53,955 bases of DNA from Myxococcales bacterium (GTDB lineage: Bacteria; Myxococcota_A; UBA9042; JABWCM01; BTVJ01), in assembly GCA_045863395.1 (NCBI GenBank), contig BTVJ01000048.1, forward strand, positions 1 to 53,955, written 5' to 3'. Below are positions 60 to 6,476 of this stretch, in pieces. Positions within the stretch are counted from its first letter, which is position 1; every line of letters begins with the position of its first letter. The notes under the pieces were generated by a model. That model ran no database searches. It saw only the letters and a list, made by a program, of their open reading frames with translations, and was not told where the DNA came from. A program made the position numbers and the translations under genes.

Positions 60-1241
60 TCACTTCTTCGTGATTGTGCGGACGAGGCGGAAGCCCACTT
101 CCTGGGGGCGCAGGTCTCCAAGTCGCAGACGCATGCTGGCGCACAGGGCCACGCTGCGGCTGAAGTAGGAGCCGCCTTTGGCCACCAGGTCCGGGCCTGC
201 GGCGAGTGGGTCGGGGTCGTGACCTGGGTCCTTGGCGGCGATCCACGGGTCGTCCCATCGGGAGCCGGTGAGCTCCCAGACGTTTCCGTGCACGTCGAGC
301 AGGCCATAGGGGTTGGGTGGGAGCTTGCCGACAGGGTGGGGGCCGCAGCAGTTGAAGCCCCAGTCGTACCCGCAGTCGTCGCAGCCGTCCCAGGAGACCT
401 GGCTGCTGCCGCAGTACCAGGCCGTCTGGGCGGCAAAGTCGTCCCAGCACGTGCTGCGCTCGACGACGTCGAGGTTGCCGTTGGCGAGGCAGCCGTCGGT
501 GCCGGCCTTGGCGAGCAGCTCCCACTCGGCCTCGGACGGGAGCCGCCAGCCCGTGCACTCGGGGCCAGCGAAGGCGGCCGAAGCGCACTGGAGGCGGCCA
601 GTGGCGTCCGGGGCGCAGCCCTCGAGGGCGTAGCATGGTGCGAGTCCATCGGCGACGCTTCGGCGGTTCGCATAGGTCAGAATCTCGGCGACGTTCACGT
701 CGCTGACCGGGCAGGAGTCTCCGCATGCGGCGAAGGTCTCTGGCACGCGCTCCATCAGCGTCCGCCACGCGCCGCGGGTCGTCTCAGTCGTGCTGACAGC
801 GAGCCGCTGGTCTACCGTGAGCCATGCCCAGCCCTTGCGTCTTACGTCCGCGCGCGGGTTGCCCGCGGGGTGGTAGAAGCTTTGGGGCGCCGGCTCCCAA
901 TTCCACGCCTCCAGGTCACCCGCGTACCCCACGAGCAGGCTCGCGGGCCCGATGGCGCAGGTGCTCGTGTTGCAGTCCGGCTCGATGGGGGCGCAGGTTC
1001 CTTTTGTGGTACATACCTGGCCGGTCGGGCAGGTGGTCAGTGCCGTGGCTTCGGTGCCGCAGCGAGATGGCGTATGGTCTGAAACCGGGCTGGTCCGCTC
1101 AATGCACCCCGAGGCGAGTGACCAGAAGGCGAGAACAGCAGTCACGACGATAGTGCGTGTTCGCGACGCCGAAATACGGTCGAGCAGGGGGATCGGGTGC
1201 GGTATGGATTTGCAGAACTGGCGGTTGGGTCCATCATCCAT
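60..1241 (-). CDS. FGE/SUMF1-fold (formylglycine-generating enzyme family) lipoprotein, paralog 2
   Basis: Motifs WRLPSEAEWELLA, PNPYGLLDVHGNVWE, KGGSY, VGFRLVRT; lipobox-like LASG-C after a hydrophobic stretch. ATG at 1241 overlaps the TGA of the upstream gene, so the 1427 start is probably too long. Confidence 0.85.
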   Translation of the reverse strand: MDDGPNRQFCKSIPHPIPLLDRISASRTRTIVVTAVLAFWSLASGCIERTSPVSDHTPSRCGTEATALTTCPTGQVCTTKGTCAPIEPDCNTSTCAIGPASLLVGYAGDLEAWNWEPAPQSFYHPAGNPRADVRRKGWAWLTVDQRLAVSTTETTRGAWRTLMERVPETFAACGDSCPVSDVNVAEILTYANRRSVADGLAPCYALEGCAPDATGRLQCASAAFAGPECTGWRLPSEAEWELLAKAGTDGCLANGNLDVVERSTCWDDFAAQTAWYCGSSQVSWDGCDDCGYDWGFNCCGPHPVGKLPPNPYGLLDVHGNVWELTGSRWDDPWIAAKDPGHDPDPLAAGPDLVAKGGSYFSRSVALCASMRLRLGDLRPQEVGFRLVRTITKK

Positions 1242-2395
1242 CACGGTGACTCCCCGATTGTTACGGTGCGGACAAGCCTCAAGCCCACATTGCTCGATGA
1301 GTGAAATGGTGCAACTGCGGAGTGCCTGTTCCAACACATCTCCAAGGCAAACTGCCGAAACGATCCGCCGACGAAGGCGACCGGGATTTGGGTAGACAGG
1401 CTGACACTGTACCCCGGATCGGTCCAATCTCCATGAGGTGCCCTTTCCCTGGCGCTGTCGAGCAGCCGAGGAGAGGACGTCCCTGGGTACGGAGGCCCAT
1501 CCGTGACGTTTGTGTCGAGGACGGTGCCTGTTGGCTCCATCACGTTGCCGATGAGATCATGGAGGCCATAGAGGGACCGTCCAAGACTCGCTATCGCATG
1601 GGGGCCGCAGCAGGAATGGCCGCAAGGGGCACGCAACTGAACGGTGCAATCGACGCATCCGGGGTAGCTGACTCCACTGTTTCCTATGGAGACCGCATAC
1701 TTCTCGGCGGGAAATCCCCCACAACTGTCCGCTCCGAACTCCATATCCTCATCGTCGACCTCGGCCATGCAGCTCCAGGGGTAGCCTGCACTGGCCGCAA
1801 GCTGCCACTCCGCCAGCGAGGGCAACCTGTAGCCCGTGCAGTCTGGTCCCGCAAACGTTGCGTCAATGCACATGTCACTGTCTGATTCGCACTCTGAAAC
1901 CGTATAGCAGCGCTGGAACCCGTGCTTGTCTGACAGGGCGTTCGCAAAGTGCAACATGTCTCCGAAACTCATGCTCTCCATTGGACAACTGGAACCGCAG
2001 TTTGAAAATGTGGGCGTCGATGTCGACTCCGGCCATACACTTGACCACTGCGCCTGAGTTACCTCGGTCTGCATCATGACAATGGGGCGAGTAATGGTAG
2101 TCCATCTGGGTATGAATGAATCGATTTCTGTATCCGGGCGCAGGAGCATCATGAAGGACGACGCTGGGATGAGACACCAGCCGTCCGTGCAGTTGGCCAT
2201 GATCGGCGCGCATGACGCCGACTCGACCAAGCAAACCTCGCCGAGGGGGCACCGGCGCAGTACGCCGTCTGCTCCGCGCCCGCAAGTCACGCGGTCCGTC
2301 GCTCCCCCGTCCACGATGGAGGCGGGCACCTCCGAGTCGCCACAACCTCCAGCGAAGCCTAGGGCGGCCGTGACCACGGCCAAACGCGCCGTCAC
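1241..2395 (-). CDS. FGE/SUMF1-fold lipoprotein, paralog 1
   Basis: Motifs MQTEVTQAQW, YRLPSLAEWQLAA, YGLHDLIGNVME, VGGSF, VGLRLVRT; lipobox FAGG-C. Start estimated at GTG 2395 (uncertain). Confidence 0.82.
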   Translation of the reverse strand: MTARLAVVTAALGFAGGCGDSEVPASIVDGGATDRVTCGRGADGVLRRCPLGEVCLVESASCAPIMANCTDGWCLIPASSFMMLLRPDTEIDSFIPRWTTITRPIVMMQTEVTQAQWSSVWPESTSTPTFSNCGSSCPMESMSFGDMLHFANALSDKHGFQRCYTVSECESDSDMCIDATFAGPDCTGYRLPSLAEWQLAASAGYPWSCMAEVDDEDMEFGADSCGGFPAEKYAVSIGNSGVSYPGCVDCTVQLRAPCGHSCCGPHAIASLGRSLYGLHDLIGNVMEPTGTVLDTNVTDGPPYPGTSSPRLLDSARERAPHGDWTDPGYSVSLSTQIPVAFVGGSFRQFALEMCWNRHSAVAPFHSSSNVGLRLVRTVTIGESP

Positions 2396-2477
2396 GCGGA
2401 CGGATCGCGATCTCGCAAGTGATGTCCCTGCTTCGGTGACGAAATGCGGTGACGCTCCATGGCGACGGTCGTCGCTG

Positions 2478-4763
2478 TCAGTCGGAGTGGAACCCACCGA
2501 AGTACCCTTGGTTTGGAAGTGGCGGAGAGTTGGCCGGTACGGCAGGCAAATTCTGCTCATCGGCGACGCATGGGCTGCTGGTGAGGGTTCGCCGGAAGGC
2601 AACGTCGTGGCCCCCGAGGAACGTCGCCAGGTGCGACGCCCAGTCGGCCACGTTGGTTCCGTGGGTATCACCCGTCTTGCAGTACCTCTGACCGAGCTGG
2701 ACGTGGTATTCACACGTGTCCGCCCAACCGCAACCTTGCGCCTGGTCCAAGCACGTCACACAGTCGGTTGCAAAGCCGCAGGCCTGAGCTGTCCAGCTCG
2801 TCGCTCGGTGCTCGCAAGGAGACCCGTTCTGCCCCTGAACGCACGCTCCGCCACTCCAGACCACCATTGCATCGAACAGGTCCTTGACCGTCGCATCCAC
2901 CACATCAGCGTATGAGTCGGCGTTGTTCGTACTCGTGTCGATGAGCTCCCAGAGTCCGTGGACGCGATTCCTTGGGTTCGAGAGATCATTCGAGTTGAAG
3001 TGGTGGATCCCGTGGTGACTCGTCATGTCGATGCACGGCACCCGCCCCGGTGCATCGAGGCTGGTGATCTCCGTGGTGGCCGGGTCCCAGAGCGTGATCC
3101 AGTGGATCAAGCCAGCGATGGACTCGCCCATGGCACCCTCCGGACCGTCCACTTTCCATGCGTCGCTCGGGTGGGAGCCATACCCGAACGCCGGCAAGGC
3201 TCCTGTGCATCCGGTCACACGCCCGTGAGCGATGTGCCCCATCTCATGGGCCGGAGTCGGGCTCCAGAGGTCACCGTCCATGAGTGTTATCGTCGACGAG
3301 CTGCAAGCCGCATTGGACGCGCGGCCAGGGGGCGGGTCGAAGTCCAGATCTACGTAAATGGGGTCGTAGGCGTTGGAGCTCCCCGCCTCTCTTCGGAACC
3401 GCAGCTCGCCCTCCTCCTCCAGCGCGAGGTGTGTGTCCCAGAGCGTGCGCCAGGCGGCTCCCGTTGCCGCCGTGTTCGGCGTGTCGTCTCCTTCCTGGTT
3501 GAGGGCGAGGTTTCCGAGATGCAGTGTGTTCTGCGAGCCGGGCAGCAACGAGAAGAGCGTGTTGGAGAGAAGGACGCGAATGGGTGACGTGTAACCGGCG
3601 ATGCGCATCTCAAGGTGGGCCGGGTACATACGGCGGCTGAACTCGAAGCCGACCCCGTAGGTGGCAGACGTGTCGCAGTCGGGATCCCACAGGACGAAGT
3701 AGCCGCTTCCGATGGTCCGCGACGTCGCGACCCAGGACCAATTTCCGTTGGCGCTCACCTTGTAGAGGCTGATGGAGAGGATCGAGAGGCCCTTCCAGCA
3801 GCAGTCAGGGGTGTCAGGGTTGCAGGCTCCGGTCTGGCAGACGGAGTGCCTTGCCCCACCGTCCGGGTAGTGGTAGCTGGTCCTCATGTCCCAGAAGCTG
3901 AGCCAGCCGTCCGCATAGCAGACGCTGGCACTCGCATCGGCGCTCGACAGCACGACCAAGGCCACCAGCGCGGCCGGGGTGTCCACGGCGCGGCGACGCC
4001 GGGCCATAATCCCACCCCCGAGCAGGAGCGCAAGTCCGAGTACCCAGGCGCCGTCCTCCGTGCCACCTGCATCGCAGCCTGTCGTTCCGGTCTGGGCCGC
4101 GACCTCCGCGGCGGCGGTCGTCGCAGCACCCTGCTTTTGTGCGAGCGCTACGCTCCCGGTCTCCACCGCGGCGATCAGTTGTGCGGCATGTGCCCGCTCC
4201 TCATCGCTGAGCGACTCATCGGTGCTGGGATCGCGGCGCTTTGTCTCCCCCATGGAAAACGTGGTGTACTCCTCAGCCTTCAGAAGCAGCTCGGGCGACT
4301 GAGAGAAGGCCATCGACGCGATGATCGCTGGCCCCTCGAGGGGGACGAACGTGGAGCCGGAGCGCTGGTAGCGTGCTCTGAAGCGCCGATCCGGGTAGTA
4401 CCCGGATGGGTCTGACGCTGTCACGTCCAGCACCACCATCTCTGCGGAGTCGTCGAGCTTCTTCGCGCCCGCATAGGTGAGCGTGATCGGAAGGTTGGGC
4501 GCGGTGGCGCTCACTTTGACGTTCAGGATGAGCGTCTGTTTCGCAGCGCTGTTCGCCTCGTTCAGGTAGCCCTTGGGCGCGTGAACGTGCACCTCGATGC
4601 TCCCGCTGCCTTCGTAGTCGGGACCGAGCGCGAGAGAGGCCGGCAGGGATACGGTCGTGGCGCCGGCGGGCGTGGTCATGGTCGCCGTCGGCCCGATGTT
4701 CAGGCGGACCCAGTCGGGCTGGTTGGCCAGGGCGGATGTCGGCACGATGATCAGTACCAGCAT
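2478..4763 (-). CDS. Secreted two-module protein: N-terminal domain + internal MYXO-CTERM + second signal peptide + HExxH zinc metallopeptidase-like domain with Cys-rich tail
   Basis: N-terminal hydrophobic signal ending SALA; internal TTGCDAGG..WVLGLALLLGGGIMARRRR; then AALVALVVLSSADASA; HEMGH at 3248-3234 with downstream AMGESIA. True start probably 4858/4864, beyond the 8-bp repeat. Confidence 0.75.
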   Translation of the reverse strand: MLVLIIVPTSALANQPDWVRLNIGPTATMTTPAGATTVSLPASLALGPDYEGSGSIEVHVHAPKGYLNEANSAAKQTLILNVKVSATAPNLPITLTYAGAKKLDDSAEMVVLDVTASDPSGYYPDRRFRARYQRSGSTFVPLEGPAIIASMAFSQSPELLLKAEEYTTFSMGETKRRDPSTDESLSDEERAHAAQLIAAVETGSVALAQKQGAATTAAAEVAAQTGTTGCDAGGTEDGAWVLGLALLLGGGIMARRRRAVDTPAALVALVVLSSADASASVCYADGWLSFWDMRTSYHYPDGGARHSVCQTGACNPDTPDCCWKGLSILSISLYKVSANGNWSWVATSRTIGSGYFVLWDPDCDTSATYGVGFEFSRRMYPAHLEMRIAGYTSPIRVLLSNTLFSLLPGSQNTLHLGNLALNQEGDDTPNTAATGAAWRTLWDTHLALEEEGELRFRREAGSSNAYDPIYVDLDFDPPPGRASNAACSSSTITLMDGDLWSPTPAHEMGHIAHGRVTGCTGALPAFGYGSHPSDAWKVDGPEGAMGESIAGLIHWITLWDPATTEITSLDAPGRVPCIDMTSHHGIHHFNSNDLSNPRNRVHGLWELIDTSTNNADSYADVVDATVKDLFDAMVVWSGGACVQGQNGSPCEHRATSWTAQACGFATDCVTCLDQAQGCGWADTCEYHVQLGQRYCKTGDTHGTNVADWASHLATFLGGHDVAFRRTLTSSPCVADEQNLPAVPANSPPLPNQGYFGGFHSD

Positions 4764-4801
4764 GAGGATCAGCGTCTGTGATAGGCGCTGGACATCACCG
4801 G

Positions 4802-4854
4802 GCGAGAGAGCGAGAGAGCGAGAGAGCGAGAGAGCGAGAGAGCGAGAGAGCGAG
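4802..4854. repeat. 8-bp simple sequence repeat (GCGAGAGA) x6.6
   Basis: Six perfect copies at 4802-4849 plus GCGAG, read directly. Confidence 0.97.
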
Positions 4855-4855
4855 T

Positions 4856-4888
4856 CATCTTCATACCTCCACTGAGCCGGAAAATGTA
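4856..4888 (-). promoter_or_regulatory. Translation initiation region (GGAGG + ATG) and possible -10 (TACATT) for the 761-aa gene
   Basis: Minus strand GGAGG 4870-4866, ATGs at 4864 and 4858 (7-nt spacing to the latter); TACATT at 4888-4883. Confidence 0.6.
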
Positions 4889-5172
4889 CGACGGTTTACG
4901 TCGAGCGCCGGTCAACGTGCTTCAGTTGCTGGCTTCTGCCTCCTTCCGTGTGGTTCCTGTTGCTACCTTGCCGGTTGAACCGCGGCGAATGACTATCAGG
5001 TTCGTACTCCTCCCGTGCCTCGAGTGTCAACAATGAACTCGCGACTTCAGCGACCGTGGTTCGTCGCCGTTACCTACGCGGGCGCTCGCACGGAGTGCCC
5101 CCGCCCGCTCGCGCTCGTCTCTGGCGCCTGCGCGCTCGCCGAGGCGCCCGCCCGGCCGCGACTCAAAGGGCG

Positions 5173-5226
5173 TGAGGGTCCGTCGGGCCTGCAAGGGTAT
5201 CACCCGCTTGGGCCCGACGACCCTCA
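5173..5226. other. Long intergenic inverted repeat / stem-loop
   Basis: Nested pairings TGAGGGT/ACCCTCA, CGTCGGGCC/GGCCCGACG, CAAG/CTTG, GGT/ACC. Confidence 0.7.
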
Positions 5227-5368
5227 AAAGGTCGCCAGCCAGGATGGTTGGAGCACTTACCGGGGTCGCGGTTTCGCGGGCCTGTTCCTCCGCGGACCAG
5301 GGCGCGGCCCCGAACGGGCCACGAGCGCTCGCCGCCCCACGACGGGGGAGGAGCCGCCTCGATCCGGT

Positions 5369-5423
5369 TCGGTGCCGGCTCGGTGCCGGCTCGGTGCCGG
5401 CTCGGTGCCGGCTCGGTGCCGGC
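5369..5423. repeat. 11-bp tandem repeat (TCGGTGCCGGC) x5
   Basis: Five perfect copies read directly. Confidence 0.97.
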
Positions 5424-5454
5424 GCGGCGCCCGCTCAGGGCCGGTGACGCGACC

Positions 5455-5928
5455 TCAAGAAGTGGGAAGGTCATCCCGGGACAGGCAGAGCTGGACCAGG
5501 GCCCGGAGCTTTGCGCGAAGATCCGGGTGCCCGTCGATGAGCACCTCGGCCTCCTTGAGGCGCGCGGTCATCGGGAGGCTCGGCGGCGGAGAGCGGGACG
5601 CGACGCGAGCCATGAACTCGGTCAGGCCTGCCTCCAGGTCGTCGTGGAGCTGCGCGAGGTCACTCCTGGAGCGCCCGAAGGATGATCGCGAGCGGCGCTT
5701 GGCAGGTACGGCTCCCGAACTCAGCGCCAGGGAGAAACGGGGAACGACGGCGCGCAGAATGGCAGTCACCTCCCCCGTGTAGGCCGCCATGGCCTCCTCG
5801 AGATGCTTCACATCGATGGGCATCCAAGGCTGCGGCATGCTCGCCTTCAGGTTCTCCGCCAGCGTGTCGAGTGCTCGGATCCGGAAGAGGCTCCGGGTGT
5901 AGTCGTCGCGGACGTTCGTGTCAGTCAC
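5455..5928 (-). CDS. Hypothetical alpha-helical protein
   Basis: 157-aa ORF; GTG start overlaps the TGA of the NTase gene (GTGA), preceded by GAGGGAG; normal protein composition. Confidence 0.6.
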   Translation of the reverse strand: MTDTNVRDDYTRSLFRIRALDTLAENLKASMPQPWMPIDVKHLEEAMAAYTGEVTAILRAVVPRFSLALSSGAVPAKRRSRSSFGRSRSDLAQLHDDLEAGLTEFMARVASRSPPPSLPMTARLKEAEVLIDGHPDLRAKLRALVQLCLSRDDLPTS

Positions 5929-6476
5929 CGCTCTCCCTCTTCATGCCAGAGTTGGCCCAGCGCGTGGGCGAGTCGGTTGCGTCGATTGGCGAGCGCCGCG
6001 TCCGTCGTGACGGGAAGCGCGGCGATGGCGGCCGCGAGCTGATCGGCGTCCAGGGGCTCGCCGGTGGCTCGCGAGTGATCGAGAGCCGCGAGGCAATCGG
6101 CCAGGTCCACCTCCGAGAGGCGCCGCACCTTCAGGAGCAAGAACAGTGTGGCGGATGGACGGAAGATCGTCGCGCGGGGGCCCGTGGCCAGCACGACGAG
6201 GTCCCGATCCCATCCTGGTACCGCCCGGACGAAGAAATCGGCGGCCGAGTTGACCGCTTCGACGGGGAGCCCGGCAGCGTCCGCCAGCTCGAGGAGCTGC
6301 ATGCGCTGGCTCGGGTCGTCGAGGCCCACGAGGTCGACGTCCTCGGTCGTCCGCCGTGGCGTCAACCACAGGGCGGCCGCAGCTCCTCCTACCAGCAGCC
6401 ACCTCCCATGGAGGCGGTCGGCCGCCGTCCGGATGAAGGCTTCGAGCTGCGCCCTGTCGAATCGTGCCTCGGCCAT
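5925..6476 (-). CDS. AbiEii/DUF6036-like nucleotidyltransferase (Pol-beta superfamily)
   Basis: LLVGGAAA...RRTTEDVD motif, later LLLK and DLAD, typical of AbiEii-like NTases. Confidence 0.75.
   Translation of the reverse strand: MAEARFDRAQLEAFIRTAADRLHGRWLLVGGAAAALWLTPRRTTEDVDLVGLDDPSQRMQLLELADAAGLPVEAVNSAADFFVRAVPGWDRDLVVLATGPRATIFRPSATLFLLLKVRRLSEVDLADCLAALDHSRATGEPLDADQLAAAIAALPVTTDAALANRRNRLAHALGQLWHEEGER

Follow-up and report, generated by a model that had tools for sequence, protein, structure and literature searches.

An octamer repeat behind the start codon of a predicted secreted zinc protease gene in a Myxococcota genome: a likely slipped-strand switch

The octamer repeat and the reading frames around it

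The window analysed here is the whole stretch of 53,955 nucleotides from the genome of a Myxococcota bacterium. On its minus strand lies a predicted secreted zinc protease gene with a perfect 8-bp repeat between its likely start codon and the core of its signal peptide, followed by two genes with FGE-sulfatase domains. The features are listed in the direction of transcription.

4866..4870, minus strand: Shine-Dalgarno-like GGAGG, read from the sequence, 7 nt 5' of ATG 4858
4769..4858, minus strand: 29-codon out-of-frame product from ATG 4858 in the assembled OFF allele, by translation
4802..4854, minus strand: perfect octamer repeat, 53 bp, 6.6 units; all frames encode SLALSLSR
4725..4775, minus strand: hydrophobic core and A-L-A end of the predicted Sec signal peptide, from the sequence and from relatives with a signal peptide here
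2478..4763, minus strand: 761-aa ORF with N-terminal domain, internal membrane hairpin and predicted zinc-protease part, from sequence, alignment and structure prediction
3990..4079, minus strand: internal MYXO-CTERM-like segment (G229-C230, hydrophobic helix, RRRR 255-258); G229 and C230 invariant in 9 sequences
3927..3989, minus strand: second signal-peptide-like segment ending A-S-A, ahead of the protease part, from the alignment; putative cleavage
3234..3248, minus strand: HEMGH zinc motif, H506-H510; in the alignment H506 is found in 31, E507 in 29 and H510 in 30 of 54 rows
3138..3140, minus strand: E542, candidate third zinc ligand, present in 54 of 54 aligned rows
1241..2395, minus strand: FGE-sulfatase-domain predicted lipoprotein, likely start GTG 2395 (PF03781, E 2e-11)
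60..1427, minus strand: second FGE-sulfatase-domain ORF, true start further in (PF03781, E 4.6e-21)

The (TCTCTCGC)6.6 run occupies positions 4802-4854 of the minus strand with period 8 and 100% matches over its 53 bp; when the window was simulated 30 times with an order-2 Markov model, perfect period-8 runs reached at most 19 bp. The first-pass annotation had proposed that this repeat, placed behind GGAGG-N7-ATG 4858, throws the start of the 761-aa protein out of frame, and the arrangement held when we re-read the sequence: the frame from ATG 4858 reads MTRSLALSLSRSLALSLSRPVMSSAYHRR and ends at TGA 4771-4769 after 29 codons. A further ATG at 4864, in frame with ATG 4858, stands just 1 nt from GGAGG and by this spacing is predicted to be a poor start. 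The frame of the 761-aa protein is open upstream as far as TAA 4898 and reads ..RLSQTLILMLVLIIVPTSALA; reading by eye, we found no evident start codon in it upstream of 4763.

ATG 4858 and ATG 4763 are 95 nt apart. The idea that loss of one unit or gain of two would restore the frame agreed with alleles written in silico, which gave products of 790 aa at 5.6 units and 798 aa at 8.6 units; the product had 15 aa at 4.6 units, 29 aa at 6.6 and 23 aa at 7.6. The fused frame also supplies the signal-peptide start that is otherwise missing, as had been suggested: among its first 45 residues the in-frame leader carries three basic and one acidic, followed by LILMLVLIIVP and TSALA, and in our judgement it reads as a normal Sec signal.

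ATG 4763, by contrast with ATG 4858, falls within the hydrophobic core of the predicted signal peptide and has no clear ribosome-binding site. GGAG, GAGG and AGGA are absent from the 25 nt upstream of it, and its duplex with what we take to be the anti-SD motif has an energy of -5.3 kcal/mol, versus -10.7 kcal/mol for ATG 4858. These values bear on a different account of the locus, in which translation starts from ATG 4763 regardless, by re-initiation after the TGA, and the repeat tunes output or does nothing. The 5 nt between TGA 4771-4769 and ATG 4763 could permit re-initiation in the assembled allele, MLVLIIVPTSALA retains a hydrophobic run and an A-x-A end, and contigs of a public RNA run (X17, described below) cover parts of the gene, with DNA in that library being possible. 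Besides the missing SD motif, the 13-residue leader from 4763 lacks a basic n-region, intact homologs start further up, and the OFF paralogs stop at other distances from later starts, so that the spacing is not a family trait. We therefore give re-initiation very little weight. Within positions 2200-5500 no match to a sigma-70 promoter was found.

A predicted thermolysin-like protease with an internal sorting-signal-like segment

The body of the gene is intact, with 761 open codons and with the zinc motif and the invariant cysteines retained. No Pfam or NCBIfam family scored above its cut-off in the protein. Pfam M4 gave no match at E <= 0.05, the protein is absent from the three PF02868 matches of the genome and thus falls outside M4 / M4_C, and a match to the FTP propeptide was likewise not found. 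Word-based protein searches returned one homolog, and none for residues 1-260. A profile search recovered 111 relatives (74 at E <= 1e-30). The family is present in 8 of 107 genomes of the class, and a sample of 401 genomes from across the phylum showed it in that class alone.

Residues 281-761 gave a predicted fold with a pLDDT of 88.9. Its closest structural match was thermolysin (Z 14.8, rmsd 3.8, 245 aligned residues), with LasB and an M36 protease also matching, and the N-terminal side of the model matched a transthyretin-like sandwich. With HExxH and a downstream Glu on a thermolysin-like fold, and E542 as the candidate ligand, the protein qualifies as an unnamed predicted gluzincin. It has in common with thermolysin (MEROPS M4) and the related gluzincins LasB and M36 the predicted fold, the HExxH motif and the invariant downstream Glu; unlike thermolysin, with which its identity is 11%, it has no Pfam M4 match, carries the N-terminal sandwich and contains many invariant cysteines. 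HExxH is absent from about 44% of the aligned relatives, some of which may be inactive. A large branch (P0007, P0016, P0021, P0030 and others) has no HExxH and keeps the downstream Glu and the cysteines, as possible inactive homologs would.

Ahead of the protease part, residues 229-279 comprise a Gly-Cys pair, a hydrophobic helix, RRRR and then the second signal-like segment. We scored the Cys-helix-RRRR motif in 33 of the 39 homologs that are near full length; for two of the six others the script had picked a wrong window. The TIGR03901 (MYXO-CTERM) model did not match the 761-aa protein; the paralog L004 reached 19.4 bits against a cut-off of 20, and for JDVT-CTERM L005 scored 24.9 against a cut-off of 27. 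As far as the accessible text of PMC11980579 describes the MYXO-CTERM signal and the myxosortase MrtX, the invariant Cys, the hydrophobic helix and the Arg cluster are common to both. In contrast to the C-terminal signal described there, the present segment sits inside the protein, at residues 229-258 of 761, with a second signal-like segment and an enzyme domain after it. The same source mentions one internal MYXO-CTERM, in MXAN_5598, with a different architecture. The genome contains seven matches to Rce1-like genes. The MYXO-CTERM-like motifs also agree with an assignment to the Myxococcota. From this order of segments we propose a candidate polyprotein, in which the Cys-helix-RRRR motif and the second signal would split the precursor in two, an N-terminal part anchored at the surface and a thermolysin-like protease that is exported. 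In some relatives (G035, P0050) the hairpin is missing and the two halves are fused directly.

Repeats on the paralogs and on other protease cassettes

The genome encodes four members of this family at 34-41% identity, and all four have a non-triplet repeat directly behind the ribosome-binding site and start, each with another unit. Below, C-numbers denote contigs of the source genome (G000), and other G-numbers denote other genomes of the class.

Octamer-locus paralog: (TCTCTCGC)6.6, OFF
Paralog on contig C1: C15 tract, OFF
Paralog on contig C20: imperfect GGATCGAC octamer, OFF
Paralog on contig C31: (GA)16.5, ON if GTG at 80514 is used

That the four units at this position are unrelated speaks for independent origins of the repeats. 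Comparison with related genomes had been named as a check in the first-pass annotation; of six outside homologs with a visible 5' end, only that of G034, a member of another family of the class, has a repeat (about five GTCT units in the signal peptide, in frame), and five have none.

Across the genome, we scored by script the perfect repeats that lie further than 150 nt from a contig end, a pass being a repeat at most 75 nt behind an SD motif with its start, beside a hydrophobic segment and an ORF of at least 140 aa. With these thresholds, picked after inspection of the data, 12 of 18 long non-triplet runs passed (11 of 17 loci); long triplet runs passed in 1 of 37 cases and random sites in 219 of 4000. 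Counting shorter runs as well gave 17/68 for non-triplet and 8/146 for triplet repeats. At least two of the hits are likely spurious (C38, C92), and two curated loci were missed (C166, C26:4854). If signal peptides simply tolerated indels neutrally, triplet repeats should prevail, the reverse of the observed pattern.

Curation by hand, which added three contig-end repeats, two short tracts (a C10 and a G9 run) and the imperfect C20 repeat, resulted in a set of 18 loci, every one of them a predicted protease gene or the gene that opens a protease operon. Thirteen lie on predicted protease genes and five on the small exported gene at the head of a metzincin-like operon.

Octamer-locus family: all four paralogs
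S8 subtilases: C26, C95, C121, C128 and C186, that is 5 of 16 S8 genes, the true start not being seen for three of the remaining genes
M4 proteases: C112 and C157, two of three M4 genes
Other HExxH proteins: C165 and C166
Operon type: C4, C40, C67, C26:4854 and C115

In the operon-type loci the small exported gene stands directly ahead of a protein of ~960-1000 aa with HExxHxxGxxH. At G000:C4:134500-139500, C40:37000-40900, C67:20400-25300, C115/C120 and C26:1500-4960 the cassette has three genes, for a small exported protein, a large HExxHxxGxxH protein and a lipoprotein downstream, and the repeat lies in the first. Outside the set of 18, an S41 C-terminal protease has a short (CT)6.5 run, in frame, in its lipoprotein signal (G000:C12:86684-86696).

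Among the 107 genomes of the class, SD-ATG-(TC)9 occurs in G000 alone. SD-ATG-C13 was found in three other genomes of the class, where the matches in G029 and G025 and one in G039 look like low-complexity or contig-end noise. In G039, from another family of the class, an M4-like gene (G039:C13, L085:384-3104; HEFTH and NEG motif) has an out-of-frame C13 run behind the start, and a C13 run is in frame in an exported-type protein of 547 aa (G039:C31, L086:32-1672).

The GC3 of repeat-bearing proteases tends to be lower than that of repeat-free ones, which hints at acquired cassettes. Among the 15 resolved loci, 4 are ON and 11 OFF, with frames less sure for tracts of 33-35 bp, which may be assembly-limited; this matches the expectation for random alleles (p 0.40), and selection for ON is therefore not visible. 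The pair C67 and C115 is 86% identical around its tract, which is G11 and out of frame in C67, and G15 and in frame in C115; the end of the C115 contig overlaps the start of C120. The two may be paralogs or may come from a co-binned relative (contamination 3.46%), and either way homologous tracts differ in length and phase. Their dN/dS is 0.19, and that of their downstream proteases 0.18, values that span both branches and are not assignable to the OFF copy. The C40 tract has the same length in its Logan member.

A rival reading is decay: the lower-GC protease cassettes would no longer be needed, the repeat length would be fixed in an OFF frame and the gene would be a young pseudogene. Several copies look this way. 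The subtilases of C109 (about 10835) and C9 (about 21393) have an in-frame TAG just past the signal peptide, and the homolog in G029 lacks its 5' part. The repeat of the C20 paralog is imperfect; three Logan copies of this gene show an unchanged length and OFF frame of the repeat region, and two of them carry odd substitutions, for example D>V next to a conserved Cys. The records of a 93%-identical relative consist solely of C-terminal pieces of 267 and 254 aa, one of them on a 10.3-kb contig. To judge by the TAG codons, some of these protease genes are decaying, and the C20 switch may be stuck in the OFF state. Decay leaves unexplained the long perfect repeats, with many units, at the same spot in 18 cassettes; moreover, the gene body at the octamer locus is intact and the C67/C115/C120 pair has a dN/dS of about 0.18. 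Decay can thus hold for some copies and not for others, and for the octamer locus we consider it unlikely. As for the individual copies, the C9 subtilase also has a C8 tract and a frame shift, and a small downstream lipoprotein gene is common to C109 and its relatives C95 and C186. The Logan contig of 10,307 bp behind P0053, P0121 and P0124, which belongs to the 93%-identical relative, holds the C-terminal protease piece and upstream genes and probably spans the repeat.

An error in assembly would offer another way out: the cells would be in frame and the assembler would have written 6.6 units. The assembly (8.77 Mb, 186 contigs) is metagenome-style, three sister repeats lie at contig breaks, and several other tracts measure 33-35 or 55 bp, near likely k-mer sizes. 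We found 70 directed cases in which the end of one contig overlaps the start of another by 55 bases, which suggests a final assembly k of 55. A collapsed octamer loop would measure 61 bp at k=55 and 37 bp at k=33; because 53 bp differs from both, and one 55-mer can span it, the tract is probably spanned and supported by reads. A wrong frame would still leave the repeat in place at this spot. We rate such an error as having a slim chance, on a par with re-initiation.

The region is wholly or partly present in 20 of 24 listed public runs from 9 studies, mostly of reactors, sludge and wastewater; two of the runs may be the source sample, and X9, X12, X15 and X17 are four others. A contig in each of X9, X12 and the RNA run X17 extends from the gene body to 4797, continues for exactly 34 letters and ends 30 bases into the repeat, which places the repeat in three independent studies; none of the contig pieces listed for X15 reaches it. 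A break 30 bases into the tract is expected for a repeat of at least 39 bp (as a loop) at a word size of 31, which we take to be that of the public-run assemblies. Since contigs break at the repeat, in three of these four runs, its unit number is not readable from them, and no second allele was seen in the public contigs. An exact 20-base pattern searched against JGI/ENA metagenome contigs, a search that possibly left out near-identical genomes, gave one chance match without the repeat, and cluster look-ups of 24 proteins (9 absent from the collection) returned no member with an altered translated repeat. The strains in the public data are near-identical, and a dN/dS is therefore not available for the octamer-locus gene.

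A proposed switch, related systems and the neighbouring genes

We regard slipped-strand on/off switching, with the assembled allele caught OFF, as the probable function of the octamer repeat. The first-pass reading of a contingency locus gained strong comparative support from the four paralogs with differing 5' units, the genome-wide enrichment and the homologous ON/OFF pair. The locus combines a frame-setting 5' non-triplet repeat, a length above chance with non-random placement, and an intact downstream gene, the features expected of SSR phase variation. In the proposed switch, the octamer between the ribosome-binding site with its start and the export signal would hold the predicted protease gene out of frame as assembled, and loss of one unit or gain of two would restore the full signal peptide. 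Replication slippage would alter the unit number reversibly and at a high rate. Loops of 8 bases probably escape MutS/MutL. Matches to MutS and MutL lie in open frames in the genome, and a mismatch-repair defect as the cause is not supported. The ON allele would give a 790-aa precursor for Sec export, to be split as outlined above. Selection would keep such switches because proteases are costly or risky, and the population would be a mixture of ON/OFF sets.

Neisseria opa genes carry a (CTCTT)n repeat. According to the accessible part of PMC13190605, pilC1 and pilC2 of Neisseria gonorrhoeae have a poly-G tract in the signal-peptide region. The octamer locus resembles these systems in having a non-triplet repeat between the start and the core of the signal peptide, ON in one of three frames. 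In pilC and opa several paralogs switch independently; here, several paralogs have separate repeats, which we know from sequence. Unlike those genes, the present ones belong to a large-genome (8.8 Mb) reactor and wastewater bacterium and not to a host-adapted pathogen, their unit (8 bp at this locus) differs between paralogs, and their targets are predicted secreted proteases. By analogy, the octamer locus is a likely, not a proven, SSR phase-variation locus that would work as pilC and opa do.

The SSR phasomes of Haemophilus, Campylobacter and Neisseria, as portrayed in the available portion of PMC11868660, likewise comprise a dozen or more repeat genes with combinatorial ON/OFF states. Unlike them, all 18 curated loci here are predicted protease cassettes, and they are candidates. 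That source reserves the label phase-variable for reversible switching at a rate of at least 1 in 100,000 in the absence of selection. Within the same phylum, Myxococcus xanthus shows yellow/tan phase variation (PMC3986340); unlike the octamer locus this is a colony-level switch, and the words "repeat" and "slipped" are absent from the main text of that paper in the version available. In a search of titles and abstract starts, mostly outside subscription journals, we found no paper on simple-repeat phase variation in Myxococcota, and titles and abstract starts also yielded no report of repeat-switched secreted proteases in this phylum. As stated in the accessible sections of PMC5909438, repeat switching is mostly a property of host-adapted bacteria with small genomes, the environmental exceptions being repeat-bearing mod (methyltransferase) genes. 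The mechanism is already known; the host and the protease-wide set are new.

A broader picture, which we put forward tentatively as somewhat less than an even bet, is that a free-living, large-genome member of the Myxococcota keeps a dedicated phasome of ~18 secreted-protease cassettes with independently arisen repeats, each cell having an individual ON/OFF combination of surface weapons or shared enzymes. One family in it would be a new thermolysin-like polyprotein, cut by a myxosortase and signal peptidase into an anchored partner and a free protease. In its widest form, this picture would make repeat switching of secreted proteases a bet-hedging strategy that is general among environmental bacteria and so far undescribed. 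A set of 18 candidate switches limited to predicted secreted-protease cassettes, in a reactor bacterium with a genome of 8.8 Mb, would imply that selection need not come from an immune system, and the cost of shared enzymes, recognition by phages or predators, and rivalry among kin would become testable causes. The locus also adds an unnamed predicted protease family with an unusual internal sorting signal, and it serves as a warning that repeat-switched genes get annotated as truncated or cytoplasmic.

A predicted lipoprotein gene with an FGE-sulfatase domain lies downstream of the protease gene in all four paralogs of the genome and in G034, G035 and G078, some of these neighbourhoods being defined by BLAST pairs alone. 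At the level of titles, literature support for an immunity role of this partner was not found. On the other side of the protease gene, at window positions 5455-6476 of the minus strand, an ORF of 183 aa overlaps one of 157 aa. The former has weak, below-cut-off matches to the nucleotidyltransferases AbiEii and DUF6036, and the two together look like a toxin-antitoxin-type pair; by eye, a nucleotidyltransferase-like ORF is also found near the C20 paralog. The 157-aa ORF is separated from the promoter region of the protease gene by an 11-bp repeat of 8.5 imperfect copies at window positions 5353-5444. Its five perfect copies make up 55 bp, the assembly k suggested above, and it may be collapsed.
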